Source: Flectonema sp. DT1601
Lineage: Eukaryota
NCBI GenBank assembly: GCA_964019425.1
Contig: OZ025796.1
Coordinates: 124,001 to 188,000 of the forward strand
Direction of reading: 5' to 3'
Length of the DNA: 64,000 nt
Position 1 is the stretch's first letter. The number at the start of each line of letters is the position of its first letter. The translations under genes were made by a program, and so were the position numbers. The notes beneath the pieces are model-generated. The model ran no database searches. It was not told the origin of the DNA and saw only the letters and a program-made list of their open reading frames with translations. This document shows positions 14,249 to 64,000 of the stretch, piece after piece.

Positions 14249-17200
14249 TTAATGTAAACATAAAACAGATATCAGCAAGACAATCATCACATAATGAGGT
14301 CTGTCGACTGATGCTATTGAACTATCAACTGGTCCGTCGTAATAAATACCTTCAGAGCTATATGACCAAGGAGGTAACACCGGCTCTGGAGTCGGCGGTA
14401 AAGTCACCAACTCTGAAACTACTTTGAACGATTGTTGCAAGATACTCTCACTACCTCCAGGTGAGACAGCATCTTGGAGAAGAAACAAAACAGAATCAGG
14501 ATTAGAAGATGAAACGGTAAAGAAAACTTTATAAATAGTCTCAGCAAACTGTAAGACTCTATACGTTCGGGAGTCGCATGATATTCTTTCACCAGTTTTG
14601 ATAGAATGCCTACAAAGTTTATCAATTCGCATATGTGACACATCCACAGCTGTTGTAGTTTCAATAACTGATAAGAACAGCAGCGGATCAAATGTAGTCC
14701 CCTGAACGCTTAATACAAAATGAACATCAGATAAAATTTGTTGAGTCAGAGTAAAAGAATTATATCCAACAAGTTGAACTGTAAAGGTTAAGTTCCCAAC
14801 CTCAAGATCGAGAGTCCCAGATTGAATTTCAGTTTCGAGTCGGAATAAGAATTCAACGACACCACCCACCGCAATGACATTCGTTGTATTTCCAACTATG
14901 AACGAATTATCTGAATTTGAAACCATCAGCGTGTGTTCCGTGAAATAATCACCACTGTGTCTCTCACCTGAAGCTGTAGTCGTTTCTAATTTTATGATAT
15001 TATTACGCAGCGCGAATACCTCTAATTGTTGATTAGAAAAGAGTCTTAAACCTGAAACAGGAACCCAAACAATATTTGTTTTGAGAATTGGAAAAGAATC
15101 CATCCTCACAATAAACCAATTAACAATATCAACAGTTGAGGTATCATTACTGACAGAATCAAAGTCGTCATTTGGTTGTGATAGAAATAGTTCACCAGAT
15201 CCGTTGAAGAAATTAAATCCAAAACCTGACGATAATGGATTCATTAGTTTCCAAGGGTCAAACTGATCATCTTCATCTGAAATAAAAACAGCAGTGAACT
15301 GCTCTCCATTAATAGAACTGTCAACGTTACCAAAGTCATCCACAGCTGATATTTTTATAATCGCTTGTTTGGTTCCTTGAACATCAACACCCATGGGTAG
15401 ATCATTTACCAATTTTGTCGCTTGAATGCCAATTGTGAAATTATCACTCTCTCCATGTATCAGTCGATTACTACCTGTAAGGTGGATCTCAACAGAGAAT
15501 GAGCATTTTTTATTTTTAAACGTCGGCTGTAATGCTTTCACCGTGACTGTAGATTCACCTTCGACAGTGTTTTCACTTCTAGTTTCGATGTCACAAGTTC
15601 CATTGTTTGATATTATAACAACTGAAGATCCACGGTCACCCAAAACAATATTGTTATTTTTATCTAAAATCGACACAATAAAAACAGCATCAACCCCAAC
15701 AACTATATCACTAACCTGGTTCACCACAGCTGAGTATGCTTCTTGAGAAACAAACACCAACTCATAATTTATTATTGGCAGACTCCCTTTAAACAACACA
15801 GCACATGTTCCAACAGCGTTAAACGACAATAACACAATCGACGTATTGGTAAGAGTGTGAGAGTATAGCCCAGATATGGATTGTTTTGGAATGTCACAAA
15901 CACTTCCATAAATTGAAACATCAATCGAGATTCTATTCATTTGATAATTGTGAACAGTATTTCCAAGTGAATCTTCTACTGCTACGACGATATTCACTTC
16001 ATTCCCGAGTACAACATTTAAAGAGCTGACATGCAATCGAAGAGCTGTTGCTGTTGGTTCAATAAGTGATATCGCAATGCTACCTTTTGATGTGATTCCT
16101 GGATTGATTTGAAGGATGCAAATCTTTTCAGTTGTCGCAGTGAATCTAACAGACAATTCCATAACAGATCGTTCCTCAAAGACTATCGTTTTATTATTCG
16201 ATATGCTTTCGATACCTCGAACAGCAAAAATACAACTGCTGTTAAGTACGACTAGTGATTTTTTAACATAAACGACAGTTGGAGGTTCGTAGCTGGTAAT
16301 TGATACTGCGAACCAGTTTAAAAAAGCAACAGGTGATCCCCAAGATAGTCGACGTTGACTGCGTTCGATTCCGAATAGAATCTTATTTTGAATCGGCGAC
16401 ATGATAGAAATCTTTTTACTTTCACCGAAGATCTGCATGTTTGATGTGAAACTTGTACAACAAGTAACTGATATCGTTGACACTCCTGAAGACGTAAACG
16501 ATCCATTAATAGAAACTTCTCCATCTCGAAACAGCAACAACTCCCCTTCAGATACTTGGAATGATCCCTTCGGTAATATCAACGAATACCTCGCAAATAA
16601 ATGTCTCATCGAAGTGTCTCCACCAACACTGAAATCCCTCCAACCGAAATTATCGACTGCCGTTACTTTTACCATCAGCGTTTGATTAACGTAGAATGGG
16701 GGTTTTGATGTTATTGTAATCATCAGTGTTGAAGCTGATGCATAAATTGGCATTACCCAATTTTGGTTTGTGTCACTTCGTAATGACAGAAGACACCTTG
16801 AACATGGATGTGATACTTCCAATAGAATAGAATACAATCCATTATCGATTGTTGAATCTTTTACTCGTATCAACACTGATCCGTTGGTTACAAAAAGACT
16901 TCGTCTTGAATCGATAAACTCCCTGTGTTGTAACACAGTATTACCACCACCATCAATAGCCTCCAGTACTACTGAGAAGGCTTGTAGTCTTATCGCTGTT
17001 TTCGGATGGTATCTTATGATGTATTTCTTAAAAGGGGCTTCAATACGAAACACTTGTCCACTGACACCTGTCAGGTAGAATTCTCTCTCAGATAACCCTC
17101 CTCCGGGAACATTCATCGGACGTACTGCAATCCTACAGGCAATACAGCTTTCACTAAAGAATAACACCACTGAAGTCTCCGCTGAGGTAAAAAAATGACT

Positions 17201-20200
17201 CTTAGGTTCAATTCCGAGTGAACGATTCTTTTGATACATCTGATTAGAGATGTGAGTAGGATCTGGAATGACAGAGAAGTGCAATGTGACACCAGAAGAC
17301 GGAGAACTGACAGCAATCTTGTTGAACATTTTTAAGACAGAGGAGAAGCTGATTGGGACGCCAACAGCAACTGAGAGCATATTTGATGGCAACACGTGAT
17401 TTAGTGCCACCAACTGAGGAGTACCAACTTTAACAGAAACATTAACATCAACATACGAGTACCTAGCTGGCAGCACGCAGTCAACAGTTGTGCAGGAGTC
17501 TGGAAGAAGTGAAAATCTAATTTCACAGTTCTCGCAAGGTGATCCAAAATGAAGCCAAACAATCGAAGCACCATTAACAACCTTTGCTGGAGAAGTCAAT
17601 AACGGAAGTCCAGCATTACAACCTGTAGTAGGTGATAATAAAGTTGGGGTTACGATACCTGATATTGACAGTGATGGATATCCGTGAGAGTCAACAACAT
17701 TGACGCTAACTGGGAATGCTTGTTTTGCTATCGCAGTACCATCTTGTAATGACCAAGAAGGGTTACCAGATTGTAAAACATTATCAGATGAAACAATCTG
17801 AACTGATGAACCTGACACTCCACTTACAACAACTCTTGATGGTAGTTCTGGTGCTCTCCAGTATGTTGAATGTGGGAAGGTGTAAGAGCCGAGTGGGAAT
17901 CCCAATTGGTTAGTTGCCTCAGTCATAACTTTTAGTCTTCCCCACATATCTCTCGATAAGGAATCATCCTTAGTCGCTGGGTTCAGTCCAAGTATTGAAA
18001 ATTGTAATCCACTTCGATTCCCATTTAGAACATCTGAGAGCCGCCGTTCAATTGACGAGGTTCCCGAAAGCCATTTAGATATGACTTCTTCTCCATCATC
18101 TTGACACTGTGAGTTGGGACATGTGAAACGTTGAACACCAACACCCCCTTCTTTACGTAGATAAACTCTCGCAGATAAAGAATAATCAATAATCCCAGCA
18201 TCATCAACAGCGTAGACCTGAAGGTTTATGAGAGGATCAGTAACTGGATACGCACCTCTAGCTGGTAATCTCGTAGCGTTGGTGTCATTAACCGGCAGGT
18301 CAGGTTTTATAAACAACGATGTGGCTACAGGTCTCAACGATACAGCTATCTTACTACCAGATACGACTTTTGCAGAATCTTCAAAAGAGATAAAACATTG
18401 AAGACAAGGTGACGTAATATGAAAATGAAACACAGCTTCACCCTTTACAAAAGGAGCTCCTAATTTTGAGTGATTCACATTAGACATTACCAAAGAACCC
18501 CCATTACCTTCTGTTGCTTTATTACCAACAAATTGCGAAGACAAAACTGCGTATCCTCTCTTCGATTGCCCAGAGTAACTGGCGTCAGGTGTTTTGTAAG
18601 CGTCAGCAGCAAACACAGTCATTGTAACTTGTTCTTTGGTTTTTAACTCGTACCAGTTTGGATTTAATTGTGCAACGACCCCGGGTCCTTCAAGTGTTTT
18701 TATTAGGTATTGAGTTGCAACTGGTCGAGAGAAGATCTCAAATGATGTGAGTTCACAGCTGCGAGTTGTTTCTAACTGCGTCCAGGAATCTGATGAAATA
18801 GGTGCTGAAAACTTTATAAAACAATTCGAACAAACAGACGCAAACTGTGCGAGGATATGAACCATTCCGTTAACAAGTTGATAATTTTTATTTTCCTCAA
18901 CCAGATTAACTCCACTACTACCAGACAACTTTACAGATATTGACGATCTAATATTTAATCCCGTTGAGCTCACTGTTCTAACAATTACATAAAACTGAGA
19001 ACCAACTGATGCTCTGTGAAGTCTTGGATTCGGATCTGCTGAGCATTCTATTCTATCAATAGTACTGACAACACTAAAAGGTGATAACGACAAGATAGAT
19101 CCTCCCCATGAATTTCTAACTGAAATGATACATCTCTGACAAGGTGTAGTAACTCTGAGGTTTTTAAACGTTGCGATTCCGTCAACAAAACTAGCCGTAA
19201 GATTTCCCAATAAGAGTGGTTTATCATAATCTAAACCACAGCAATCGGATAAGAAGACCGTTCCCAAACCCTGATTGCCATCATCTCGAATACCACGACC
19301 ATCAACAGCTGTTATTACTAGTGTTTCAAAATAAACATTCATTCCAATCATATTTGATAGCTCAGACAACAATAGTAATCTACTGCTAATAGTTCTTATC
19401 GACACAAATATAGAACAGTTTGAAAACTTGTTTCCGTTTGATAAAATAACTGTTAGCTTACACTTACTTAATTTGCTACATCCCTGAAGCATTTTAATAC
19501 TTATAATTAAATTTCGTTTATCGTGTGGTGGTGTTGGAGATGAAGTTGAAATCGGAACAGCAACAATACGACCAGATATGGGAGGGATGTGTAAGGTGTG
19601 TTGAAGCATCGCATCAACAGAAACAGGGATTCCTTCATGATTCTCACCTCTTAGCTCGAAGTCATAGATCTCCCCAACTTGAAATATACCCTCGGGTACT
19701 TGATTGAGTGATATTATCCTTTCAGCTTTGACTGGTTTTATTAATACATCTAATCTACCCATAGTAATCCACTCTCCGTCATCACGATAAATACCTACAT
19801 TAAATACCAATACTATACTGTTCATTAATGGCTTTGTTGGTTTCAGTTTAAATATTGAACTGAGCTCTCCTTTTTTAAATTCCGACTTAAACACAAGTCC
19901 CGTATCACTTGCACATCCTCCAACACAGTTAATGTTGATTTGTCTGAGCGCGCTTGAGTGACTTTCGTTGAAAAAAACCCACGCAGGATACGATGTCGAC
20001 TCAGCAAAAACTGAGTTGTTGTTTAATAAAAATGATTTTATTAAAAGCGATTGTCCTTCCCAAAGTGTTTTATAATACAAATTACCTGGATTGATATGCG
20101 GGATAGGTACGATAACATTCACCATACTGGGTGACAATATCACTGGAGCAGACTGAATACCATTCCAATGCATTGAAGTATCTGACAGAGTGGAAATCGC

Positions 20201-23200
20201 TTTTCCCTTAACAACACATTCTTCATAATAGCATCCATGTGGTATTTGGATCACGACAGATGCGTGTCCTTTGTTAAAAAAAGTTTTATCTTTACCCCAT
20301 CCGTATAAATTATTGTTATCAGTACAAGTTTGAGAAGTGACAGAGTATGAGTTTCGTAAGAATGATTTACCTGACAGGGTGACTATAATGTAACATGACC
20401 AGTGATCTACTACTACTTGTCCTCGGTCTGATAGTAGAAAAAATGATAATCTAAAAAACGAACCTTCACTAACAACGTCATTCGTATAATTGTCTAAGAC
20501 AGTAAATGAATTTGATAATATTTCCAAATCCTCGTATGTAACGTTCATTGATTTAATTTTAAAGTCTTCACTCCCAGTTGTTAATTGTTGAGTTCCAAGA
20601 GACGCACTCTCTCCATTTCTCAACGCTAATGTTGGAATTTGAATCCAAACACCAGATCGTATCCTAGTCCCAACAGCAGAATTCCTTCTTATGTAACAAA
20701 CAACATTAAATGTGTTTGATTTCCATGATTCTGTTGACAGTACTAAAGTTTCAGCTTGTGATAAATAACCTGATGAACTAAGAGATGATGTCAATGGATG
20801 TAGTGAAGTATCACCTGACAGACATCCGAGTGGATTAGTTAAAAGTGATATTACTTTTATACTGTCAGCTGTTGACACTTTTTCAGGTATTTCAGTTTCC
20901 TGAACTGAAATCGCTGATATAGACGGAGCTGATTCCGGGATTGGTACACTCGTAGCCCACTCATCTATTAATGAAACTTTTCTTACCAAACTATTCCATA
21001 AGTAGTAGACAGCTGATTGGACTACATCTATCCTACCAACACTTATCCAAATATCAACCCTACTGTAGTAATAACATAAAGTATACTTACCTTCTATGGG
21101 AGGAACAACAGCTGAAATAGTCATCGAAGTAGTGGTAGAAGATGATAAGTTACTAGTTTGGGTGGTTATGTTGATGGAAGTATCAGTGCAACTGTCAGGT
21201 AACTCTTCAGATACAATCATAAATAAATCAGTATCCGAAGAAATAGAATTACTAACACCGTCTACCTTGATACTATTCTCTAACACAGACCCAGCCACAA
21301 TCGCTGTCGGAACATCCGTAGCGTTGTAAGATGAACTTCCAGTGAATGATGCTTGTCGGACTTCCTCGATAATTTGAAGGAGGGAGGTGCTATTTAATGG
21401 TTTAATCTCCAACCAAATACCTCCAGTAGCTTCATTCTTATAACATATTCGATACTGTCCTGATTGCCTAGGTAGTGTTATGGTTAATAATGAATATTGT
21501 AGATTCTTATAACCACTCGGTCTGATTATGTTAGTCGCTACTCGTGGAGATCCAGATCCACAGAAATACTTTTCAGATATTATCTCAGCAAAGTCGATGT
21601 CAGGATTGAAAGAAACACATTGCGGACAACTACTCCGAGAGAATCGAACTTGAACGATACTTCCTCCAATATAAGTATCTGTTCCTAGAGAAGGTAGTAT
21701 AGAGTACATCATAAAGGATGATGTGATACTAACAGAGGGTGTCATTTGAAACCAAGACTGCGACGTTCCATAACAAGCAACCATCTTCTGCGGTATTTTA
21801 AAATCGTGAACCGGATTTGTATATTTTGATATCGCGATTTTTGATCCATTTAAAGATGTTTTTAATTGAAAATTTGACGTTAAAGTTTCCTGAACAGCTT
21901 GTTGTTGACAGTCGATGTCGGTTCCTTTATACAAAACTAATTTAAAGGAATCAGACGACTGCAAACTATGACCAAAATCACTATAAAACACGATCTCTGA
22001 TAACGATCCTGAACGACTTGATGACACGCTATGACGAACAGTGAAACCATTCGATGGAGTCAAACCTTTTGTTCTTTCATTCGTATTGGTTACTTCTATC
22101 GATAGCTGTAAAACATTTTCTGATCCAAAAGGAAAATAACACAACGAATACGACTCTCGACTCCCAATCTGTTTTGGTAATAAAACAGAAAACGTTGCTG
22201 TACTATAACCCGAAGAATCAGTGACTGGAATTGAAATCGTTTGATAAGACTCCAGAGGAGTTAAATAGCAAAATGATTCGTTTTGAAGAATTGAGATTAT
22301 GTCATTTGGATTCATGATGTATTTGTCTTTGTGTGATTTTAACGTAACGAGAGTTATCGATGATTCAATTAGTTCAGAAACAGATGCGTAGAGTTGTATC
22401 TCAGCTGATGTTCGAAGTATAAAAGAATCCTCTTGTCGATAAACAACTCCATCACTTCCGGGAGCTCTGTAATATCGGTTTTCAAAATAGTTCGGATTCT
22501 CAATCGTTATCCAATTCCGAGAACCTAATTTCAGACATACGAAATATCCATCTGTCTCACCACTACTACTTCCTGAGACCAGTGATGGGAATGAGAAAGG
22601 AGGTAATAGTAACCATGCTGTCAACATCCCTTTGTTAATATTAGTATCGATGGAGTTGTACTGTGAGATGTCCCACGTCTCACTTAGTGGATGTAAAGGA
22701 TTGTCTGCGAGACAATTCCCATTCACATATGAACTTATAATTTTAACAGCGATGCTTCGTTCGTCAACGATGGTGTCAACTTCGTGCCAGGTATTTTTCA
22801 CCGGGCTTATCGTTTTGCTCGAAACGACGTCAAAGAGAACGACCGGAGCAAAAGTACCTCCGCGGGTATCGTTGATCGAGTAAGTCACGTTTACGGTGGT
22901 CGCAGTCGGGTGGACCAAACTTCCTAAAACTCTCCAATTATCATCTTGTTGTCGATAGCAAACAAAACTACTTTGAGTAGGTACCTTAAAGTAACCGTAC
23001 GTAGTATTCGATATTTCTTCATCGACTTTCATAAAATTAATTTCTCGTGGATTACCTCCCAAGTCAAAACTCTCCAGATCACTATCACTATGCCAACATC
23101 CTTTATAAGGATATAAAGTCTCAGAAGCAGTGTCGTATAACTGAGAAGGATATGAAAAGAAAACACTATACGGGACGACACGAAATGCATCACCACCAAC

Positions 23201-24577
23201 GTGAGTGAAATGACTGTTACTTTGACTAGGTGATGATGATAAGAATGAAGTAAATTTTGAATATGGTTTTGTAAATTTTAATATTCCCCATGACTTCTCA
23301 GTTAAGTCAAGTGAACTCCACTCGACGGTATCAATTTGATTAGCTGATGAAGGGACTGGGTAGACTGTTATCAAAACATCATTCTCACTACTTACATTAC
23401 TAAGAACTCTCCAACCAGGACTCTGCAATGTGACGTCAGCTGATTTCAATGAAAGCCTTTCAGACGATGCCGAATAACATAGTTTATAATCCGTAGTCTT
23501 TGTAACTGACGGTAGTTTAATATAAACAACTGGTACTCCAGTGTATAAAATAGTTTTATCATATTGCCATGGAACATGTTCATTTGTTCCCACTGATGGT
23601 GAAAAACCACCTTCAGTAGATCCATATGCGATAGCTTCATAGTAACCAGATGCGATAAAACTTGATACTGGCATTGCATCAGAATGAGTTCCTGGATACT
23701 TAACTACTCCTGATTGGTATAAACTTGATGATTCTGATAAACAAGTTGCTGTTGCTGGTATTAGTTTAGCAATGTCTCGTCTCCAGCTTGACTCCTGATG
23801 AACAGTCGATGGGTTAAATGAAAACAAGTCTGTATAAGAAGTACTTCCAATTACTTCAAATCCAATAAAATCGTTCGAATAGAATTTCGATCCAGAACTG
23901 TGTCGGAAATACAATTCCGATGCGTTTGGAATGTGGGATTCGTATCCCGTTGTTGGAGTTTCCCATGACCGAGTTTTACTTGTTTTTCCTATGAAGTTCC
24001 AACTTGATTGAAATTTCTCAGTACCCCAGTTGTCCATTCCAGACTCATTGAAATATGACTTTGATTTTCTAATACAAAGTCTCCATGCTGTTTCTGGGAC
24101 AGTGAATGTCGCATATCCAGTGGAACTCATGCCGTGTGGGGATGTGCCGATAGCGTCCAGTAGGTCTGTCGATTCGAATATCGTGTCATTCTCGTAGTGA
24201 GTTTCACATTTTGTTTGTGTTCCTTCCCAATAGAAATTACCAAACTCATCCGTATCTCGTCTCCCTCCTCCAACATAAGCGTTTATCATTCTGATACCTG
24301 CCTCGTTTTCTGAAATATTTAATAGTTGCCAAGTATTTGCTATGTCAGTGATATTTACATCTGTTCCAAGACCAGATATCTTCAACTCGACTCTAAATAC
24401 AATTCCAGTTGCCATCGTTGAGGAATCACAACCTCCGCATATTACGGTCAGATCATAATTAAAGTTTTTATCATTCTCTGGATTAGGATAGTCACCCCAA
24501 CTATCTGAACCGTGTACTAGTGAGGATGTTATTATTATCAGTAACAGTCCCACAACACAAACAGGTGGTATACTCAT
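14249..24577 (-). CDS. Giant intronless secreted/surface protein (~3440 aa) with repeated beta-rich modules
   Basis: Uninterrupted ORF of about 10.3 kb. Signal peptide MSIPPVCVVGLLLIII, recurring Y-x-[LIV]-C-Y...W modules in the N-half, Ig-like A-V-D-x-x-G and PCxxC modules in the C-half, a Pro-rich stalk and a hydrophobic C-terminus (TM or GPI signal). Confidence 0.85.
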   Translation of the reverse strand: MSIPPVCVVGLLLIIITSSLVHGSDSWGDYPNPENDKNFNYDLTVICGGCDSSTMATGIVFRVELKISGLGTDVNITDIANTWQLLNISENEAGIRMINAYVGGGRRDTDEFGNFYWEGTQTKCETHYENDTIFESTDLLDAIGTSPHGMSSTGYATFTVPETAWRLCIRKSKSYFNESGMDNWGTEKFQSSWNFIGKTSKTRSWETPTTGYESHIPNASELYFRHSSGSKFYSNDFIGFEVIGSTSYTDLFSFNPSTVHQESSWRRDIAKLIPATATCLSESSSLYQSGVVKYPGTHSDAMPVSSFIASGYYEAIAYGSTEGGFSPSVGTNEHVPWQYDKTILYTGVPVVYIKLPSVTKTTDYKLCYSASSERLSLKSADVTLQSPGWRVLSNVSSENDVLITVYPVPSSANQIDTVEWSSLDLTEKSWGILKFTKPYSKFTSFLSSSPSQSNSHFTHVGGDAFRVVPYSVFFSYPSQLYDTASETLYPYKGCWHSDSDLESFDLGGNPREINFMKVDEEISNTTYGYFKVPTQSSFVCYRQQDDNWRVLGSLVHPTATTVNVTYSINDTRGGTFAPVVLFDVVSSKTISPVKNTWHEVDTIVDERSIAVKIISSYVNGNCLADNPLHPLSETWDISQYNSIDTNINKGMLTAWLLLPPFSFPSLVSGSSSGETDGYFVCLKLGSRNWITIENPNYFENRYYRAPGSDGVVYRQEDSFILRTSAEIQLYASVSELIESSITLVTLKSHKDKYIMNPNDIISILQNESFCYLTPLESYQTISIPVTDSSGYSTATFSVLLPKQIGSRESYSLCYFPFGSENVLQLSIEVTNTNERTKGLTPSNGFTVRHSVSSSRSGSLSEIVFYSDFGHSLQSSDSFKLVLYKGTDIDCQQQAVQETLTSNFQLKTSLNGSKIAISKYTNPVHDFKIPQKMVACYGTSQSWFQMTPSVSITSSFMMYSILPSLGTDTYIGGSIVQVRFSRSSCPQCVSFNPDIDFAEIISEKYFCGSGSPRVATNIIRPSGYKNLQYSLLTITLPRQSGQYRICYKNEATGGIWLEIKPLNSTSLLQIIEEVRQASFTGSSSYNATDVPTAIVAGSVLENSIKVDGVSNSISSDTDLFMIVSEELPDSCTDTSINITTQTSNLSSSTTTSMTISAVVPPIEGKYTLCYYYSRVDIWISVGRIDVVQSAVYYLWNSLVRKVSLIDEWATSVPIPESAPSISAISVQETEIPEKVSTADSIKVISLLTNPLGCLSGDTSLHPLTSSLSSSGYLSQAETLVLSTESWKSNTFNVVCYIRRNSAVGTRIRSGVWIQIPTLALRNGESASLGTQQLTTGSEDFKIKSMNVTYEDLEILSNSFTVLDNYTNDVVSEGSFFRLSFFLLSDRGQVVVDHWSCYIIVTLSGKSFLRNSYSVTSQTCTDNNNLYGWGKDKTFFNKGHASVVIQIPHGCYYEECVVKGKAISTLSDTSMHWNGIQSAPVILSPSMVNVIVPIPHINPGNLYYKTLWEGQSLLIKSFLLNNNSVFAESTSYPAWVFFNESHSSALRQININCVGGCASDTGLVFKSEFKKGELSSIFKLKPTKPLMNSIVLVFNVGIYRDDGEWITMGRLDVLIKPVKAERIISLNQVPEGIFQVGEIYDFELRGENHEGIPVSVDAMLQHTLHIPPISGRIVAVPISTSSPTPPHDKRNLIISIKMLQGCSKLSKCKLTVILSNGNKFSNCSIFVSIRTISSRLLLLSELSNMIGMNVYFETLVITAVDGRGIRDDGNQGLGTVFLSDCCGLDYDKPLLLGNLTASFVDGIATFKNLRVTTPCQRCIISVRNSWGGSILSLSPFSVVSTIDRIECSADPNPRLHRASVGSQFYVIVRTVSSTGLNIRSSISVKLSGSSGVNLVEENKNYQLVNGMVHILAQFASVCSNCFIKFSAPISSDSWTQLETTRSCELTSFEIFSRPVATQYLIKTLEGPGVVAQLNPNWYELKTKEQVTMTVFAADAYKTPDASYSGQSKRGYAVLSSQFVGNKATEGNGGSLVMSNVNHSKLGAPFVKGEAVFHFHITSPCLQCFISFEDSAKVVSGSKIAVSLRPVATSLFIKPDLPVNDTNATRLPARGAYPVTDPLINLQVYAVDDAGIIDYSLSARVYLRKEGGVGVQRFTCPNSQCQDDGEEVISKWLSGTSSIERRLSDVLNGNRSGLQFSILGLNPATKDDSLSRDMWGRLKVMTEATNQLGFPLGSYTFPHSTYWRAPELPSRVVVSGVSGSSVQIVSSDNVLQSGNPSWSLQDGTAIAKQAFPVSVNVVDSHGYPSLSISGIVTPTLLSPTTGCNAGLPLLTSPAKVVNGASIVWLHFGSPCENCEIRFSLLPDSCTTVDCVLPARYSYVDVNVSVKVGTPQLVALNHVLPSNMLSVAVGVPISFSSVLKMFNKIAVSSPSSGVTLHFSVIPDPTHISNQMYQKNRSLGIEPKSHFFTSAETSVVLFFSESCIACRIAVRPMNVPGGGLSEREFYLTGVSGQVFRIEAPFKKYIIRYHPKTAIRLQAFSVVLEAIDGGGNTVLQHREFIDSRRSLFVTNGSVLIRVKDSTIDNGLYSILLEVSHPCSRCLLSLRSDTNQNWVMPIYASASTLMITITSKPPFYVNQTLMVKVTAVDNFGWRDFSVGGDTSMRHLFARYSLILPKGSFQVSEGELLLFRDGEVSINGSFTSSGVSTISVTCCTSFTSNMQIFGESKKISIMSPIQNKILFGIERSQRRLSWGSPVAFLNWFAVSITSYEPPTVVYVKKSLVVLNSSCIFAVRGIESISNNKTIVFEERSVMELSVRFTATTEKICILQINPGITSKGSIAISLIEPTATALRLHVSSLNVVLGNEVNIVVAVEDSLGNTVHNYQMNRISIDVSIYGSVCDIPKQSISGLYSHTLTNTSIVLLSFNAVGTCAVLFKGSLPIINYELVFVSQEAYSAVVNQVSDIVVGVDAVFIVSILDKNNNIVLGDRGSSVVIISNNGTCDIETRSENTVEGESTVTVKALQPTFKNKKCSFSVEIHLTGSNRLIHGESDNFTIGIQATKLVNDLPMGVDVQGTKQAIIKISAVDDFGNVDSSINGEQFTAVFISDEDDQFDPWKLMNPLSSGFGFNFFNGSGELFLSQPNDDFDSVSNDTSTVDIVNWFIVRMDSFPILKTNIVWVPVSGLRLFSNQQLEVFALRNNIIKLETTTASGERHSGDYFTEHTLMVSNSDNSFIVGNTTNVIAVGGVVEFLFRLETEIQSGTLDLEVGNLTFTVQLVGYNSFTLTQQILSDVHFVLSVQGTTFDPLLFLSVIETTTAVDVSHMRIDKLCRHSIKTGERISCDSRTYRVLQFAETIYKVFFTVSSSNPDSVLFLLQDAVSPGGSESILQQSFKVVSELVTLPPTPEPVLPPWSYSSEGIYYDGPVDSSIASVDRPHYVMIVLLISVLCLH

Positions 24578-24659
24578 GTTGCATGTTACTGAATAAAGAC
24601 ATAAGGTTAAGCAGACGCCGAACACAAAGTATCACTAAAACGTGTAATATTTTAAACCC

Positions 24660-53490: not shown

Positions 53491-54774
53491 TTATTTTGTG
53501 AAATCGTCTGTCGTGTACTGTGAAAATGTTTCCGCTGATATGTCACCAGAAGCTAATCTGGAAGCAATTGATTGACTACCACCGAGTCCTTTTAGTAAGG
53601 ATTTCACGGTAGTTCTGTATTTCCCAGCAAGGTTTGATCCGCATGATGCCCAGAGCTGTTGTTCTATTTCTTCTCCTTTATCAGTTCCTCCTTCTCCTCC
53701 ACTTTCTTCAATTTGTTTTTGAAATCTGAGAGCGACTTCTCCTCTTACCCTCGAGATCTTCGCGTCTCTTACTGAGGTGTCATCTTTGGGACGCTTATCA
53801 GCTTGAGAATCGTCTTCGGCTGGTCGCTTGATCTGTTTTTTGTGTTATCTTAAGAGGAATAACAAAACAATAACTACAGTAGAATGAATACAAACCTTCT
53901 CAGCGCTCGGCTTGTCAGGACTCGGTGAAGGATGGCTCTCTTTTTTAACAGCCGGAGGCGTTGGAGGAGGATCGCTAGCCTTTGGAGCTTCGCTAACCTT
54001 TGGAGCTTCGCTAGCCTTTGGAGCTTCGCTATTACTTGTTGGGGGTGCTGGAGATTCTTGCAGAGGTGGGACGTAGTGAAGTGCTGACCCTGAAGGGATT
54101 CCTAAGTCAGTAAAGGTTAGAGTGAGGTCACTAATTCTACATCCATTATAAACAATACGACCAGCTTCATCAGGAAGTCCTCGACGGGTAGCAATAGCAG
54201 TGCGTAGTTGAAGGATTGTTGAGGACGATGATAAATTATGAATTTGAGGTTCACCACCAAACAGCTTAACAGTAATAGAGAACTTCTCATCCTCTACATC
54301 TCCGGCAGCGAATTGTGAAACTGTTTGACTGTCACTCGGAATGTGAGGTGACGATTCCACTGATGGTTTTGGCATCGCTGAAACCTCCGTTCCACTTGAT
54401 ACGATCTTTTCATCTTCATCATCATCATCATCACTGTCATTGGTTTTGATTATTTTAAGAGTTTTCTTGGGGGCACTTTTTTTCGCTGCTGCTTTCGCCT
54501 TTTTAGGTGCTGCCTTTGCCTTTCTCGGAGGTGAATCAGGATCTGGGTGTTCTGATAAAATGTGAGATTGAACTGCGTACCTGACTGGTAATCTATCGTC
54601 TTCTGGGATACTCATATCAACTTTAAATGTTTTATCACACATTGGACAGGTTTGAGATTCTTCACCGAACTCTTCAGAGTCAAGCGGATCTTCCTTTTCA
54701 AAGCTTAATTCAGACCCGGATGATGATGGGCTTCTCGCCCTTCTATTCCGACTACTTCTCACACGTGCGGGCAT
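53491..54774 (-). CDS. Protein with C2H2-like finger, ubiquitin-like domain and C-terminal TFIIS-central-like domain, 2 exons (54774-53896, 53832-53491)
   Basis: CPMC..HILSEH, and a UBL domain FSITVKLFGG..TILQLR..RIVYNG..LTFTDLGIPSGSALH. Intron 53833-53895 gives EEIEQQLW..KYRTTVKSLL..LASGDISAETF. Confidence 0.72.
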
Positions 54775-55051
54775 TCTTTGTGATGCTGCTTTTTAGAAAT
54801 AGAATTGTTTGTTTCATCTTTAAGCGAATTCAAGAACAGCTGTAGTAATCTGTTAAGGTAGTTCAATAAAGAAAATAACAAATATAACAACGAAGAGAAA
54901 AAAAAGGGAATGAAAATGTGTAAATATCTTACAGGCAGAATGATCTGTAAAGATTTATTCTAGATTGGTGGAAAGAAGAAAGGCAGCCGAAAAGAGAACA
55001 AAGAAAACGTTCGATATAAGCGAAAAAAAAATGACATCAAAAAAAAAAGAC

Positions 55052-58712: not shown

Positions 58713-61675
58713 CTAGAACTGTTGCTGAGGGAATGAGTAGCAACTGCTGCCTGGTGGTGGGTATGGTGGTGCTCCCTGTAGTGATGTTATATAAAACGAT
58801 CGAATCAATCACACAAGTAAACAACAACAACCAAATAATAATAATAATAATAACACATACGGGAGGAACAGCTACCATCGTCACTCCTGGCGGGGTGTTA
58901 AAAACCTGTTGAAATGGCTGCATCCCTGGTGCGAATTGTAAACCCTGTTTTATGTTAAAATGTGAAGAGATTCATAAACAACTCTTACAACCATTCTCAA
59001 CGACAGTAATCTGTGAAGAGTTACATCGCTGATGAAGTGATACTGAATTGAACCAACCCAGCTGTAGGTCTATTCACAACACATCTATTTAATTAAAACT
59101 AATCTACATACCTGCATAGGTGGAGTCAGAGACAAGTGCGGAGGTGTTGCCTTTGATTCCACGTCCTGCCCGATTCCCTGTAGCTGTGGCTGCGTTGATG
59201 CTCCAATTGGAAGAACACTAACCAAATGAGGCACCGCACTCGACTGAATAAAACCAGCATGGCCAGTCTTACTGATGTAAGGAACTCCTGTTTTAATTAT
59301 TTTCTATTTAAGTTTTTGTATATGAATATGAAAAAGGAAAACAAACACAAACCATTCAGCAGTGCTGGTGGTTCCATACTAGCAGTAGGTGGTGTATCCT
59401 TCGGGAAGAAAGCAGCAGCCTCGGGATTGAGATGCGGCTTGTCTTGATACTGAAGGTGAGAGAGTTGAGAAATTGGAGGTCCCAATGCAGGTGGTGACGG
59501 TAGGTCAGACTGGTATGAAGCCTGTGAGAGGGAAGGGCTGGTTGATCGGACGTGAGCAACATCAACACGGGGGTGAGGCGGAGGGGATTTTTGCTGCGGA
59601 GGACGAATATTTTGATCAGCGATAGGAATGCAAGACTCAGTAGCCATGGCTATAAGATCATCATCAGCTGACTGACTTTGTTTAACATCATAACCAACAC
59701 CTGGTTGTCCTTCACCAGTTCCCCAACTATTCATTGCCTGGGGTTGTACTTTAGAAGGATGTAGTTTACCATTTCTTAACAAAGTATATTCATTCTCACT
59801 AACTGACCCATCAGGTATGTCTTCACCAAGCCAGAATCCCTCAACTACTCCAACCTCACCTTTCCTTTGTTCATTACTGAATATAATTGTTCTTCGTTGC
59901 TTTCTGTTAAGTCCTGGAGGATATAAATAACCTTCGTGAATAAATGCACTGCTGCTGGATTTTCCTTGACCGTATCCTTTGCCTCTGCGTTCTGGAGGTG
60001 GGGAACGTCCATCTCTTGTAGTATTGTAGTAGTGAGCTTCAGCAGCGCCATTACCGCGGCGGCCTTCGTAAGAATAGTCTGAGCGACCTCCCTTGAAATC
60101 ACGATATCCCTTTCCTGTTCCTTTCTTTCCTCCAAAACGAGATCTATCACTCCACTCATCGTAGCTGTAATTATTATTAACAGGATTGTCCTGTTTCATA
60201 ATTGAGGTTACAGTATCCTTCTTAGCCCACATACTAGTTCCTGTTGTTCCAGAAGACATTTGAGTTACTTGAGCTGGTGCTGGTTTCCCTCTGCTACCGG
60301 AACTAGCATTAGCATTCCATGCAGGGGAGTCAGGGTTAAATGGTGAATCCGCCCAGCACTTTATTGGACTTGGACCTGCAGGAGGTACAAGTACTGACGG
60401 ATCTTTAGGTGATGTCTGTCCTCTACTACTACAAGGTGTACTCTTTTCAGATCCAACTGGTGTGAATACGGCAAACGATGACTTAGCAGTTGTCGTTTGA
60501 GGAACGAATCTCCTTGCAGAAAGAATAGGAATACAAGGGATGCAAAGAGTGCTTTGATTTCCTGAACGTGATCGACGACCAACTGTTGCACTGCGAGACT
60601 CGTGTCTTCCACGAGCTGGGGTGGGAGTAGCCTCGATTTTCGATTCAACAAGTTCTGGGTTAAGACATTTAATACCAGCCCTCTTAGCTTTAGCATTACT
60701 AGCGACTATCGGTGCCGGAGACACGACTTGTTCTTCAGTAGGTGCAGGCAACACTTGACGAAGTGATGTTTGATAACCTCCTGCAATAGGCGTCATGACT
60801 CCAAGTGTTCTCGTCGACATTATTCCAAAATAATTACTCACGTCAGCCTCGCCCAACAAGTCCTGTGACGTTAATGGCGGCGGGGCAGAATGAGGTCTTC
60901 TCCTGTCTATTAAGACACTGTAATCCAAACTGTCTCTAACAGGAGAATGCTCAACAACAGTACTCGTCAGGTTCTTTTTAATCTTGTTGTGGGGTTTGAA
61001 TAACAGCTGAACTCCTCCTAATTTCTTTTTTAACTGAAAACTCATCATATCTTCTAAGGCTTTGTCACGTGATCCCAGCCATATTTGTAGGGTGCATGAT
61101 GAGCCTTTGTTGCATATACCAACTCCATTTATTAGATCGGAACCTTCAAACTGACCAGCAACAACTGCGAGGGTGACATCCATCCAGAGATTTGCGGTGT
61201 TCATTTCGTCTGAAATTAATGCTGTGAAGTGACCTCCAACTTTGTTTGGTTCATCTTCCCATCTTGGTCTAATTTTATTTTTAAATAAGTAGTGCGATGT
61301 TCCCTTTTCTTTAGGGAGTCCTAATGCTTCAAACCAATCCCAATATGATCTAATTTGATTAAATGAACCCAAATCCTTTAATTCCTGGTGTTCAGATCCG
61401 GGCCATGTTGTAATCCAGAAGGACCAAACCTTATCTAAGAATTCCGATGACCCCCATACTTTTGATGTTGGTGTTCTGGTGCTTACAGCCGGAGTGATAT
61501 CCAACGTTGCTAGCAGTCTTTCTTCAAGCATTCTAGGCGATAGTGGTCTCACGACATCTAACGATCTTGCTTTAGTTGCTGTTGTTGGAGCACTTTGAGG
61601 TATTTGTGAATACAATCCTTCTTCAACATCAGCAAAGCAATATCTTCCCTTATCATATCCAGGTGTTTGAGACAT
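58713..61675 (-). CDS. eIF4E-domain protein with very long low-complexity C-terminal extension, 4 exons (61675-59353, 59287-59112, 58944-58861, 58775-58713)
   Basis: WSFW, LGSFNQIRSYW, LFKNKIRPRWED..NKVGG, LWMDVTLAVVAGQF, INGV and LQIW. Three GT..CAG introns restore a continuous Pro/Gln-rich frame to TAG at 58715-58713. Confidence 0.85.
58958..59080 (-). ncRNA. Candidate intronic AGA-box or H/ACA snoRNA
   Basis: Inside the 167-nt intron 58945-59111. A hairpin with GTGAA/TTCAC lower and GCTG/CAGC upper stems is followed directly by AGATTA (fits the ANANNA H box and the AGA box), then a weak second hairpin and ACA-TTT. Confidence 0.4.
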
Positions 61676-62673
61676 TACTATTGTCTTTTTTGTTTTTTTT
61701 CTCGATGTTTATAAATGAAGTTTTCGAATTTACCGATGAAAGAAAATCCCGTTTGCTTTTATATTTTTTTTTTTTTTTTTTCTTTGGTTTGTTGTAGTTT
61801 TTTTTTTTTTTTTTTTTTTTTGCTGCTTATATTTGTATTCCCGTGGAAAAATAAATCCTCAGTTCATAGTTACTATTTTAATGTGTGGGTTTTAGTGGGT
61901 AACTTTTTCCCCTGTTTATGAAAAATATGAAATTAGTTAGAATTAGTTTATGAGATAAAAAAGAAAAATCATCATTATGATGTTCCATAAAAAAACACAC
62001 TTGGACGTGAAATTCGTAATAATTTCAGCAGAACTAATCTTTTCAAAAAAAGATTTTTTTTTTTTTTTTTTTTTTTTTTGATAAAAATCGAGTTTATCAA
62101 TGCTGGTGGTTAGTATTACAAACAAATAATGGTTGGCTTTGGTATTTATTTTGTATCCCATTTAACATAGTTCCCCTATATCAATGAACACGCGTTACCA
62201 ACTAATGAGTGTTACTTAGTTACATTGATGGGGGTGAAACTTTGCCAAGGTGAAAACATAGATATTAAAAACAAGATTAATATCAAAAGTACATGACTGA
62301 AAAGAAATATTTGTAGTTGTTAATCAAAGAAAAGGTACGTTTAGAACATAAAAAAGGGAACATCTTTTGTCTTATTGACCAGAAGACGTTGTCCAATCTG
62401 ATGTTGATGAGAGGAATAATGAAGGTTTCCACTCATAAAAACAGATTTATCGATTTCGGTTAGCTAGTTGGTATTAATAGTTGTCAGTCAATCAAAAAAA
62501 AAAGAAAATCAAATGCAAAAATTCGTAGGACATCAAACAAAATGGTTGGTTTCTTAGGGTAGACATTGGTTAGTTAGTATCATTAATTTTAGAACAGAAA
62601 AGTGAGAATAAAAAAAGTAGAGATCAATAAAAGAAAAGTATTCATTTCTGCAGTTTCCTAACATCAAAGGGTA

Positions 62674-62760
62674 ATAGAATATGTAGTTTCAGGCCTTAAT
62701 CTTATACTACTTGTCCCTTTTTAGGCCTTCATCAGTAAGTTCTAAGGGACTTCATTCTAT
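62674..62760 (-). ncRNA. Hammerhead-like ribozyme with non-cyclically permuted strands
   Basis: CUGAUGA (62735-62729), GAAA (62690-62687) and a GUA cleavage triplet (62707-62705). Stem I CUUA/UAAG, stem II AGGCCU/AGGCCU, stem III ACUAC/GUAGU, plus extra helices GUCCCUU/AAGGGAC and AUAGAAU/AUUCUAU. Confidence 0.72.
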
Positions 62761-62839
62761 GTTGAAGTTGCTATCGTTCAAAGATAAAAATCCATCGGAG
62801 CTCGCCAGGATAGGGCTAGCAATGTTTATTTGCTTTTGC

Positions 62840-64000
62840 TCAATTTGAATTTTTGACGTCTGATCGTTTCACTATTACAGTCGAGTTAATGGATGAGTCG
62901 TCATCCAATTTGCGTTTTACTTTATCTTCGCATATCATCAAAGGTCCTATATTCGCTGGTGTCATCGTAACATCCATATCAGTCTGAGCTTTTATTGGTA
63001 TCATATGGAAACTATACTCTGTAGTTCGGTACATCTTGTCAAAATGATCGAAAGGGAGTCTTAAATCTTTTGTGCCTTTAAGAATGTCTCGGATGATCAT
63101 GGACTCAAATGAGACTAGCGCAACAATAAAGTGAGTCATCCTTGTTTTCGCTTTATGTAGAATAAGTGCTGCGGCTGCTTCAGGATAATCGAAATCTGCT
63201 GGGTTAACGAAGTACTCGATTCTTCTGTTGAATTTAGTCATGCAAGCCATGTTAAGTACTTGTAGCGAGAACCAACCATCTGGTGATGGTTTATGCTCTG
63301 AGTTGTTCGGTTCTACTTTAAGAGATTCTTCATAAAATCGCTGTTGGTAGTTTTGCAGAAAACTGAAGTTAATTCTATCGATATATAAATGATCTGCAAT
63401 GAAGTTGAGCGCTGCCCATCCGCATTCTCCACCGAGAAGACCTTCTCCTGATGTTTGATGTAGGGATGGTGGAAATCGTTTATCCAAGGAATGGCTTGTA
63501 GAGCCTGTGTGGTTAATTGTATCCTTTTCGATGCTTAATGGGACTTTGTGACTAAACTTCTCAAAAGTAAGGTTGATACGACGCATTGCAGCTGCTGTAT
63601 TACCATCATCAATGTGAGAGCTAATGAAGCGGAGGCATGCTGCTCTGATATTGTCAGATTTATAGCCCCGGTTGAGTAATCTATAAGTTACCGCTTCAAG
63701 TTCCTGTAAAAAGTCTGCCTGGTTGTTGCAGATTTTTAGAGCTCGTAAGATCATGGTGGTAAAGATACCTGAACCCATTGACTCTTGAGCTGCGGAATGC
63801 TGATGAGTAAACCTTGTTGGCGTAATATGCCAACCCCTGGCTTTGTCATTAACACTTAAACGAATCCATCGTTTATTTGTGTTAGTGATCTCTATTCGGA
63901 TACGAATTCCTATATAAGAGACATCATCAATATTATTCGAAGTATCAGTGTAATCCATTGAGTACAGACTTGCTGGTGGAGGGTCACAACTCCAGGTGAG
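62840..64000 (-). CDS. C-terminal part of PLE reverse transcriptase fused to a Josephin-like protease domain (5'-partial)
   Basis: The frame is open to the window edge (LTWSCDPPPASLYS-MDY...). VSYIGIRI..LSVNDK..RFTHQHS..GIFTTMILRALKICN..F..E....LLNRGY matches PLE RT motif 7 and thumb. It is followed by ECGWAALN, DGWFSLQVLNMA, THFIV, IIRDIL and EYSFHMI, which parallel the Josephin domain. Confidence 0.85.
   Translation of the reverse strand, partial: LTWSCDPPPASLYSMDYTDTSNNIDDVSYIGIRIRIEITNTNKRWIRLSVNDKARGWHITPTRFTHQHSAAQESMGSGIFTTMILRALKICNNQADFLQELEAVTYRLLNRGYKSDNIRAACLRFISSHIDDGNTAAAMRRINLTFEKFSHKVPLSIEKDTINHTGSTSHSLDKRFPPSLHQTSGEGLLGGECGWAALNFIADHLYIDRINFSFLQNYQQRFYEESLKVEPNNSEHKPSPDGWFSLQVLNMACMTKFNRRIEYFVNPADFDYPEAAAALILHKAKTRMTHFIVALVSFESMIIRDILKGTKDLRLPFDHFDKMYRTTEYSFHMIPIKAQTDMDVTMTPANIGPLMICEDKVKRKLDDDSSINSTVIVKRSDVKNSN

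Follow-up and report, generated by a model that had tools for sequence, protein, structure and literature searches.

A probable Chlamys-type Penelope-like element from Flectonema sp. DT1601 with a divergent Josephin-like, predicted deubiquitinase domain after the reverse-transcriptase thumb

We describe a Penelope-like element (PLE) whose 3' part lies at the edge of a 64,000-nucleotide stretch of Flectonema sp. DT1601 DNA (assembly GCA_964019425.1, contig OZ025796.1, positions 124,001 to 188,000; hereafter the window, with coordinates counted from its first letter). A minus-strand open reading frame (ORF) at 62840-64000, made up of 386 codons and a TGA stop (62840-62842) and open through the window edge, probably codes for the final 386 residues of a protein from a multicopy Chlamys-type PLE; the last folded domain of this protein is Josephin-like with a predicted Cys-His-Asp triad and likely acts as a deubiquitinase. 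The product, P0001 (P numbers denote proteins throughout), comprises the end of the reverse transcriptase (RT), the RT thumb, a linker, a domain of about 160 aa and a disordered tail. An earlier sequence-only reading of this DNA had proposed a PLE-type RT fused to a Josephin-like protease, and we recovered the ORF and all the motifs that it quoted: NDKARGWHITPTRFTHQHS...LLNRGY, HQTSGEGLLGGECGWAALN, DGWFSLQVLNMA, THFIVALVSFESMIIRDILKG and EYSFHMI. Residues are numbered here from the window edge, whereas that reading counted from Met15; its C179, H276 and D291 are our Cys193, His290 and Asp305.

Copies, paralogues and element class

An exhaustive phmmer search with the ORF product returned 82 matches at E ≤ 1e-3, 25 of them at E ≤ 1e-10 and four at E ≤ 1e-30, with both the thumb and the C-terminal parts matched, a homology that is far beyond chance. 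Most of the 82 aligned to query stretches inside residues 1-155. Residues 1-135 matched RVT_1 proteins with an N-terminal GIY-YIG domain (P0005, P0018, P0055, P0069), while a small family matched residues ~165-383 (P0003, P0004, P0021, P0027, P0029, P0046, P0056, P0060, P0062, P0066, P0080). When longer relatives of P0001 were sought with a word-indexed search, none came up, although exhaustive phmmer did find relatives; Pfam and phmmer against the PDB gave noise only for the ORF itself (Longin, E 0.057; fructose bisphosphatase and urease, E > 1).

A profile search for longer proteins identified P0087 (610 aa, 98% identical), representative of a 90% identity cluster with 59 members, as well as a second subfamily, the 24-member P0088 cluster. 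Member lengths range from 99 to 1367 aa among the 30 members listed, and full-length proteins occur in these clusters: P0101 has 1350 aa, P0095 1279 and P0105 1367. P0001 is identical to the C-terminus of P0095 at 385/386 positions and to P0101 at 383/386, besides one missing Arg codon. As judged from these near-identical paralogues, the complete protein is predicted to be ~1280-1350 aa long. The element is multicopy, with tens of near-identical copies on different contigs and a single one within the window. Two proteins are internally deleted (P0004, P0086), with the protease domain following the RT palm directly or its second half following the RT end, which suggests that they are deletion derivatives of the element. 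The named relatives all come from diplonemids (Flectonema neradi, Lacrimia lanifica and Diplonema papillatum); those of Flectonema neradi, P0002 and P0060, are transcriptome-derived.

The window copy begins within the RT palm (residues 1-45, 63866-64000, minus strand), which contains YIGIRI. Alignment with P0101, P0095, P0087 and P0002, in which RYIDDF immediately precedes LTWSCDPP, places the YIDD motif just beyond the window. The thumb follows (residues 46-135, 63596-63865; RFTHQHS...RALKICNN...LLNRGY), the stretch matched by most phmmer hits, and then a linker to the protease domain (residues 136-174, 63479-63595), which in the alignment is one Arg shorter than in the paralogues, in frame. 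The sequence-only reading had suggested looking further upstream for a YxDD motif and an N-terminal GIY-YIG domain; both occur in full-length paralogues that are 99.7% identical to the window copy, and its view of the RT C-terminus as PLE-type is supported.

In full-length copies the order is a basic N-terminus, GIY-YIG, CxC, GxKF, DKG, RT with YIDD, thumb, Josephin-like domain and disordered tail. The GIY-YIG motif of P0101 and P0095 reads GVIYALF...VYVGQT...R..HSHW...PREQYYINSF..LLN; the CxC motif takes the form ATCPCLRT / STCNCS in these two proteins and CSPCPCC in P0105, and all three share GxKF (RGQKFRVP) and DKG (LKVDKGQHD). The RT itself carries PHLYGMIKLHK...MRWI, FDFTTMY, IGIPMGG and RYIDDF in the full-length proteins. 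From FDFTTMY to IGIPMGG there are ~70 aa, the interval in which an insertion-in-fingers domain would lie, between RT3(A) and RT4(B). Pfam recognized the GIY-YIG domain only weakly in P0105 (17 bits against a curated cut-off of 22.6) and found no match in P0101 or P0095. Four relatives scored above the cut-off (P0005, 23.5; P0069, 24.5; P0130, 23.0; P0138, 23.1 bits), with the domain N-terminal to the RT in all of them, and a profile of 12 full-length relatives aligned the GIY-YIG core to that of I-TevI (E 0.95).

CxC, GxKF/Y and DK(G) are diagnostic of the PLE clade with an N-terminal endonuclease (Naiad/Chlamys), within which the absence of a CCHH finger from the endonuclease separates Chlamys from Naiad (Craig et al., 2021; PMC8557442, in the sections available to us). 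The endonuclease region of P0101 (~231-345) has a single Cys, with none between GIY and YIG, and therefore no CCHH finger. By these published criteria, an N-terminal GIY-YIG domain without CCHH together with the CxC, GxKF and DKG motifs points to the Chlamys type.

Fold and predicted triad of the C-terminal domain

The Josephin-like domain spans residues 175-335 (62996-63478, minus strand) and is predicted, from AlphaFold2, Foldseek and hhalign, to be a papain-fold cysteine protease. In the family alignment the positions G, E, G-W-A, N and G..F, which fall in the motifs ECGWAxxN and DGWFS, hardly vary. We modeled residues 160-386 with AlphaFold2 (mean predicted local distance difference test, pLDDT, 75.5; predicted template modeling score, pTM, 0.72); the core (166-339) reached about 80-96 and the last 47 residues were disordered. 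The model places Cys193 at the very start of a helix, His290 ahead of a strand and Asp305 after the following strand.

The sequence-only reading had proposed AlphaFold with Foldseek as a check, and Josephins were indeed the top PDB matches for two different models. For the window domain, the ATXN3L and ataxin-3 Josephins held ranks 1-4 (E 7.9e-5 to 2.1e-4; template modeling (TM) score 0.45-0.57), followed by the C39 peptidase of ComA (3.8e-4) and then by the bacterial Josephin PcJOS and by JOSD2. For P0056, a family member only 20% identical to the window domain, Josephins held ranks 1-5 (E 3.3e-5 to 3.4e-4), the best match being 3o65_A (TM 0.56/0.62, root-mean-square deviation 3.7), with the C39 domains of PCAT1 and ComA next. 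At the sequence level, HMMER aligned dGWFS..L of the family to GFFSIQVISNAL of ATXN3L and gHW to QHWF, pairing the GFFS helix and the His.

A bridge to Josephins is offered by the PLE relatives themselves. Five of them carry a Pfam Josephin (PF02099) match after the thumb (P0022, 40.3; P0024, 34.2; P0064, 36.7; P0035, 27.0; P0041, 20.0 bits), four above the cut-off of 26 bits and P0041 below it. Aligned to these five with hhalign, the window family gave E 8e-4 over 133 columns, pairing ECGW with vCGLH, GWFS..L with GFtLqtLL, the His of HW/HF with that of gHFva, and Asp with Asp. The sequence-only claim of a Josephin-like domain thus stands for fold and profile and fails for the Pfam Josephin model. 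We call the domain Josephin-like rather than a PF02099 member because fold and profile relate it to Josephins while that family's own model misses it; on structural modeling and profile comparison, it appears to be a divergent Josephin relative.

The three residues singled out by the sequence-only reading as an intact triad occupy conserved columns. Among 42 domain matches to the family hidden Markov model in the proteins collected, the column of Cys193 (codon 63422-63424, within ECGWAALN), at a helix start in the model, holds Cys in 35 of the 37 members that cover it, with two Ser and five gaps. That of His290 (63131-63133, THFIVAL), aligned to the His of ATXN3L QHWF, holds His in 33 of 36 (two Gln, one Arg, six gaps), and that of Asp305 (63086-63088, IIRDIL) holds Asp in all 34 (eight gaps). 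Cys193, His290 and Asp305 are the predicted catalytic residues. Two Diplonema papillatum proteins, P0141 and P0029, carry Ser in the Cys column and Gln in the His column, and in the 770-aa P0141 CCCH-like Cys/His clusters follow; they may be inactivated, domesticated or decaying derivatives. A self-cleavage site at the LLGG immediately ahead of Cys193 was weighed and dismissed, since the family does not conserve it.

Sequence divergence is unevenly distributed along the element. Between P0101 and P0105, which represent the two subfamilies, identity is 49% in the N-terminus, 67% in the endonuclease, 70% in the RT, 85% in the thumb, the most conserved segment, 64% in the Josephin-like domain and 42% in the tail (residues 336-386, 62843-62995), which is predicted to be disordered (pLDDT < 50). 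A 709-nt marine metatranscriptome contig (run X2) spans 62646-63348 and is ~93% alike. It differs from the window copy by 14 synonymous and four non-synonymous changes in core residues 246-328, and by six synonymous and 13 non-synonymous changes in tail residues 336-386 (37 coding differences listed, with nine further differences outside the list). The ratios of 14:4 in the core and 6:13 in the tail fit purifying selection on the fold. The comparison with reads was by contigs only and informs on the parts that they cover; the presence of this contig in an RNA library is a hint of expression rather than proof of transcription.

Deubiquitinase families after the RT thumb

Relatives of the element carry other deubiquitinase families at the same place. 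A Pfam scan of 76 of the 82 phmmer matches, leaving out six short near-identical fragments, found eight ubiquitin carboxyl-terminal hydrolase/ubiquitin-specific protease (UCH/USP) domains, five Josephins (four above the curated cut-off) and two OTU domains, all 15 C-terminal to the thumb. USP/UCH domains (PF00443) follow the thumb in P0120, P0118, P0010, P0013, P0017, P0032-P0034 and P0018, several of them from Diplonema papillatum, and OTU domains (PF02338) lie downstream of it in P0038 and P0077 (34.1 and 27.3 bits). P0118 (1365 aa) and P0120 (1412 aa; GIY-YIG at 210-297, UCH at 1137-1406) contain the full succession of GIY-YIG, RT and USP in one frame. That USP, OTU and Josephin domains occupy one position in related elements suggests that deubiquitination, and not one particular fold, is the selected activity, and it is from this comparison with relatives that the window domain is likely to be a deubiquitinase.

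We built an unrooted thumb tree (IQ-TREE, LG+G4, 140 columns, 66 rows) from 86 sufficiently long rows after dropping 20 near-identical cluster members, with matches of fewer than 90 profile positions excluded. The window family fell in a 30-row clade (SH-aLRT 95) together with 12 USP-labeled rows, 11 of them Pfam-verified and one, P0125, labeled by cluster membership, while the PF02099-bearing relatives formed a separate clade (SH-aLRT 97). Being short and unrooted, this tree supports no more than the statement that the type of deubiquitinase does not simply track the RT lineage.

The same Josephin-like family also opens a retroelement protein of another class: P0060 of Flectonema neradi (1748 aa), with an APE endonuclease and an RT of long interspersed element (LINE) type, starts with it (31% identity over 121 aa), which makes the family common to two retroelement classes in one host group. 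We tentatively suggest, as a possibility that we would not yet favor, that Chlamys-like PLEs have radiated in diplonemids and other protists with a post-thumb deubiquitinase as a standard, exchangeable module, Josephin-like, canonical Josephin, USP and OTU domains having substituted for each other there, with the Josephin-like domain shared with LINE-type elements of the same host and ubiquitin removal generally required.

Several USP-bearing PLE relatives bear host-gene annotations: the Diplonema papillatum 'Ubiquitin carboxyl-terminal hydrolase 26' and 'Kinesin-like protein 3' contain PLE frames, and 'V-type proton ATPase subunit a3' is another such name. These are probably gene models fused with PLEs.

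Proposed role and alternative readings

The element would copy itself by target-primed reverse transcription after a nick by the GIY-YIG endonuclease, as other endonuclease-bearing PLEs do. Its protease may deubiquitinate the element protein or host factors, or remove a ubiquitin-like modifier from them, which could keep the retrotransposition complex safe from degradation or restriction that depends on ubiquitin.

Several results weigh against a Chlamys-type PLE with a Josephin-like deubiquitinase. Two thirds of this copy, its upstream part, fall outside the window and are deduced from the 99.7%-identical paralogues, and the Chlamys placement, made by motifs, is putative. PF02099 gave no match at E ≤ 10, neither for P0001 nor for any of ten aligned members. 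The Foldseek TM scores are modest (0.45-0.62), with C39 bacteriocin-processing peptidases close behind (E 3.8e-4 to 5e-4), the family profile searched against PDB sequences reaches ATXN3L at E 0.95 only, and the hhalign probability is just 24.6%. In a protein atlas the neighbors are C39, YopQ and IpaJ-type papain-like proteases rather than Josephins, with scores of 0.89-0.92, a range that also yields chance hits. The predicted triad, finally, reflects order and alignment and not spatial closeness.

Much of this would be expected if the domain belonged to another papain-like lineage, C39-like or similar, and its likeness to Josephins were general clan-CA similarity; a Pfam trace of Peptidase_C39 among family members (E 0.11) points the same way as the missing PF02099 matches, the atlas neighbors and the C39 domains near behind the Josephins in Foldseek. 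Yet Josephins rank first for the models of two different members, the HMMER alignment pairs the G-W-F-S helix and the His with those of ATXN3L, and hhalign connects the family with PF02099-positive domains that hold the same position in related PLEs, in an alignment that matches all three catalytic columns and the G-aromatic-F/T motif. We therefore regard a separate lineage as highly doubtful. Alternatively, the domain might act in cis as a processing protease on the polyprotein of the element, for instance releasing itself or the RT, in the manner of papain-like proteases of RNA viruses. A papain fold with an intact predicted triad suits any cysteine protease, and the close structural matches include C39 leader-peptide peptidases, which cut after Gly-Gly. 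Viral OTU and papain-like proteases often perform both polyprotein processing and deubiquitination, and here too both roles could coexist. Processing nonetheless seems an unlikely main role: the family alignment shows neither a conserved Gly-Gly nor any other candidate cleavage site between domains, the relatives fill the same position with USP, OTU and Josephin domains, all known ubiquitin or ubiquitin-like hydrolase families, and most PLEs do without a protease (Craig et al., 2021; PMC8557442, sections available to us).

Another reading is that the host has domesticated the ORF as a gene of its own, or that the ORF is a dead remnant, so that its protease would serve the cell or nothing. It shares its strand with a host gene cluster, only the 3' part of this copy is visible, many paralogues are truncated or internally deleted, as in P0004 and P0086, and P0141 of Diplonema papillatum, with Ser and Gln in place of Cys and His, is fused to CCCH-like fingers. 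Against this, the window copy differs from full-length ones by one to three residues and one in-frame codon, and tens of near-identical copies with full-length GIY-YIG-RT frames on different contigs are the mark of a mobile element that was active recently, which leaves domestication or decay very improbable. Our preferred reading remains that of a mobile Chlamys-type PLE with a likely deubiquitinase as its last folded domain.

Relation to known elements

The sequence-only reading had presented the architecture as one not known in PLEs, which does not hold. Chlamys-1_cBra and Chlamys-4_cBra of Chara braunii have a C-terminal Josephin-like extension, published as weak homology (Craig et al., 2021; PMC8557442, as far as available to us), so that a PLE with a Josephin-like C-terminus was already on record. 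According to the same sections, these elements share with ours an N-terminal GIY-YIG domain without CCHH, the CxC motif, the RT, the C-terminal Josephin-like extension and a multicopy state; a canonical hammerhead was not found in the part of our element that was examined. They differ in their host, a streptophyte alga as against what is apparently a diplonemid-like protist, and in their ORFs of ~1800 aa with a second C/H-rich motif that was not seen in the window family; the two Josephin-like domains are likened by description and not by direct sequence comparison.

Closer to home, the Diplonema papillatum protein KAJ9437456.1 (P0120, the 'Ubiquitin carboxyl-terminal hydrolase 26' above) has an N-terminal GIY-YIG domain like the window family. 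In the USP-bearing ORFs of this species the RT and thumb are 38-40% identical to those of the window and a deubiquitinase-family domain stands directly after the thumb, but this C-terminal domain is a USP/UCH (PF00443) rather than Josephin-like.

Josephin-type domains also occur in Dualen/RandI and other APE-type elements without long terminal repeats (non-LTR), where they accompany an APE endonuclease and a LINE-type RT and lie N-terminally or internally, in contrast to the position after a PLE thumb seen here. A Josephin-related cysteine protease is described for Dualen (PMC9977147, available portion), and N-terminal Josephin deubiquitinase domains for the ORF2p of Haematococcus, in a preprint that also reports N-terminal OTU domains on ORF2p (bioRxiv 10.64898/2026.06.17.732966, available portion).

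The Josephins of ataxin-3, ATXN3L and JOSD2 (PF02099; PDB 1yzb, 3o65, 6pgv), the best structural matches of our two models, have in common with the window domain the Cys-bearing helix, the helical arm, the G-aromatic-F-S helix, the His strand and the Asp/Asn strand. They differ in their low identity to it (9-19%), its lack of a PF02099 match and its Asp instead of Asn at the third position. Ataxin-3 has a Gln five residues before the Cys, for which the window domain has no obvious counterpart.

We found no report of USP or OTU in PLEs in the full texts searched, a set outside which most subscription journals and the Repbase reports fall, and full-text search for diplonemid Penelope elements returned only unrelated papers. 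In their available portions, a kinetoplastid mobilome paper covers CRE, INGI, TATE and VIPER only, and the Diplonema genome paper makes no mention of PLE or GIY. What appears new, relative to this literature, is the host group and the interchange of deubiquitinase families, neither of which we found reported.

No other major class of retrotransposons is as poorly understood as PLEs, which rarely carry accessory enzymatic domains. The present findings extend endonuclease-bearing Chlamys-type PLEs to a euglenozoan-like host, lend structural and profile support to what had been published as 'weak homology to Josephin', and place three deubiquitinase families in one slot of related elements; they also flag mis-annotated host 'genes' in Diplonema papillatum. 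The hypothesis that ubiquitin removal is needed for, or protective of, retrotransposition is thereby made testable. Should the domain prove to be an exchangeable module, ubiquitin removal would be a general need of retrotransposition in these organisms, serving as a counter-defense to ubiquitin-dependent restriction.

3' end and genomic surroundings

The stretch 62677-62839 (minus strand) is probably the 3' untranslated end, a weak assignment with an uncertain boundary that follows the ends of contig matches: 62677 is the end of one low-depth X1 contig only, another X1 contig runs to 62569, and the 93%-alike X2 contig ends at 62646. Chlamys-type elements are characterized by the lack of a canonical hammerhead ribozyme and by a pseudo-LTR or tandem insertion structure. 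No hammerhead or other Rfam family was found at E ≤ 1 in 61000-64000, where the 3' end of one copy is visible. Long homopolymer A runs, as read on the minus strand, occur at 61770-61850 and 62055-62085, in the spacer between the element and the next same-strand gene downstream, an 803-aa ORF at 59297-61708 with an eIF4E domain (PF01652, E 3.3e-22, residues 91-230) followed by a long low-complexity extension.

Of the 25 window ORFs of at least 150 aa, 23 lie on the minus strand. The neighboring genes are eukaryotic and intron-poor (eIF4E-family, MAP65, protein kinase, WD40/CTLH, tubulin-tyrosine ligase, porin and Band 7), and their one-strand arrangement is typical of euglenozoan co-transcribed clusters. 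Taken with the diplonemid origin of all named relatives, it suggests that the host is diplonemid-like. The window ORFs appear intron-free, among them one of 3460 aa at 14249-24631. A 315-aa ORF at 53845-54792 (minus strand) has a ubiquitin-family domain (PF00240, E 3.3e-6, residues 173-241) and is apparently unrelated to the element.

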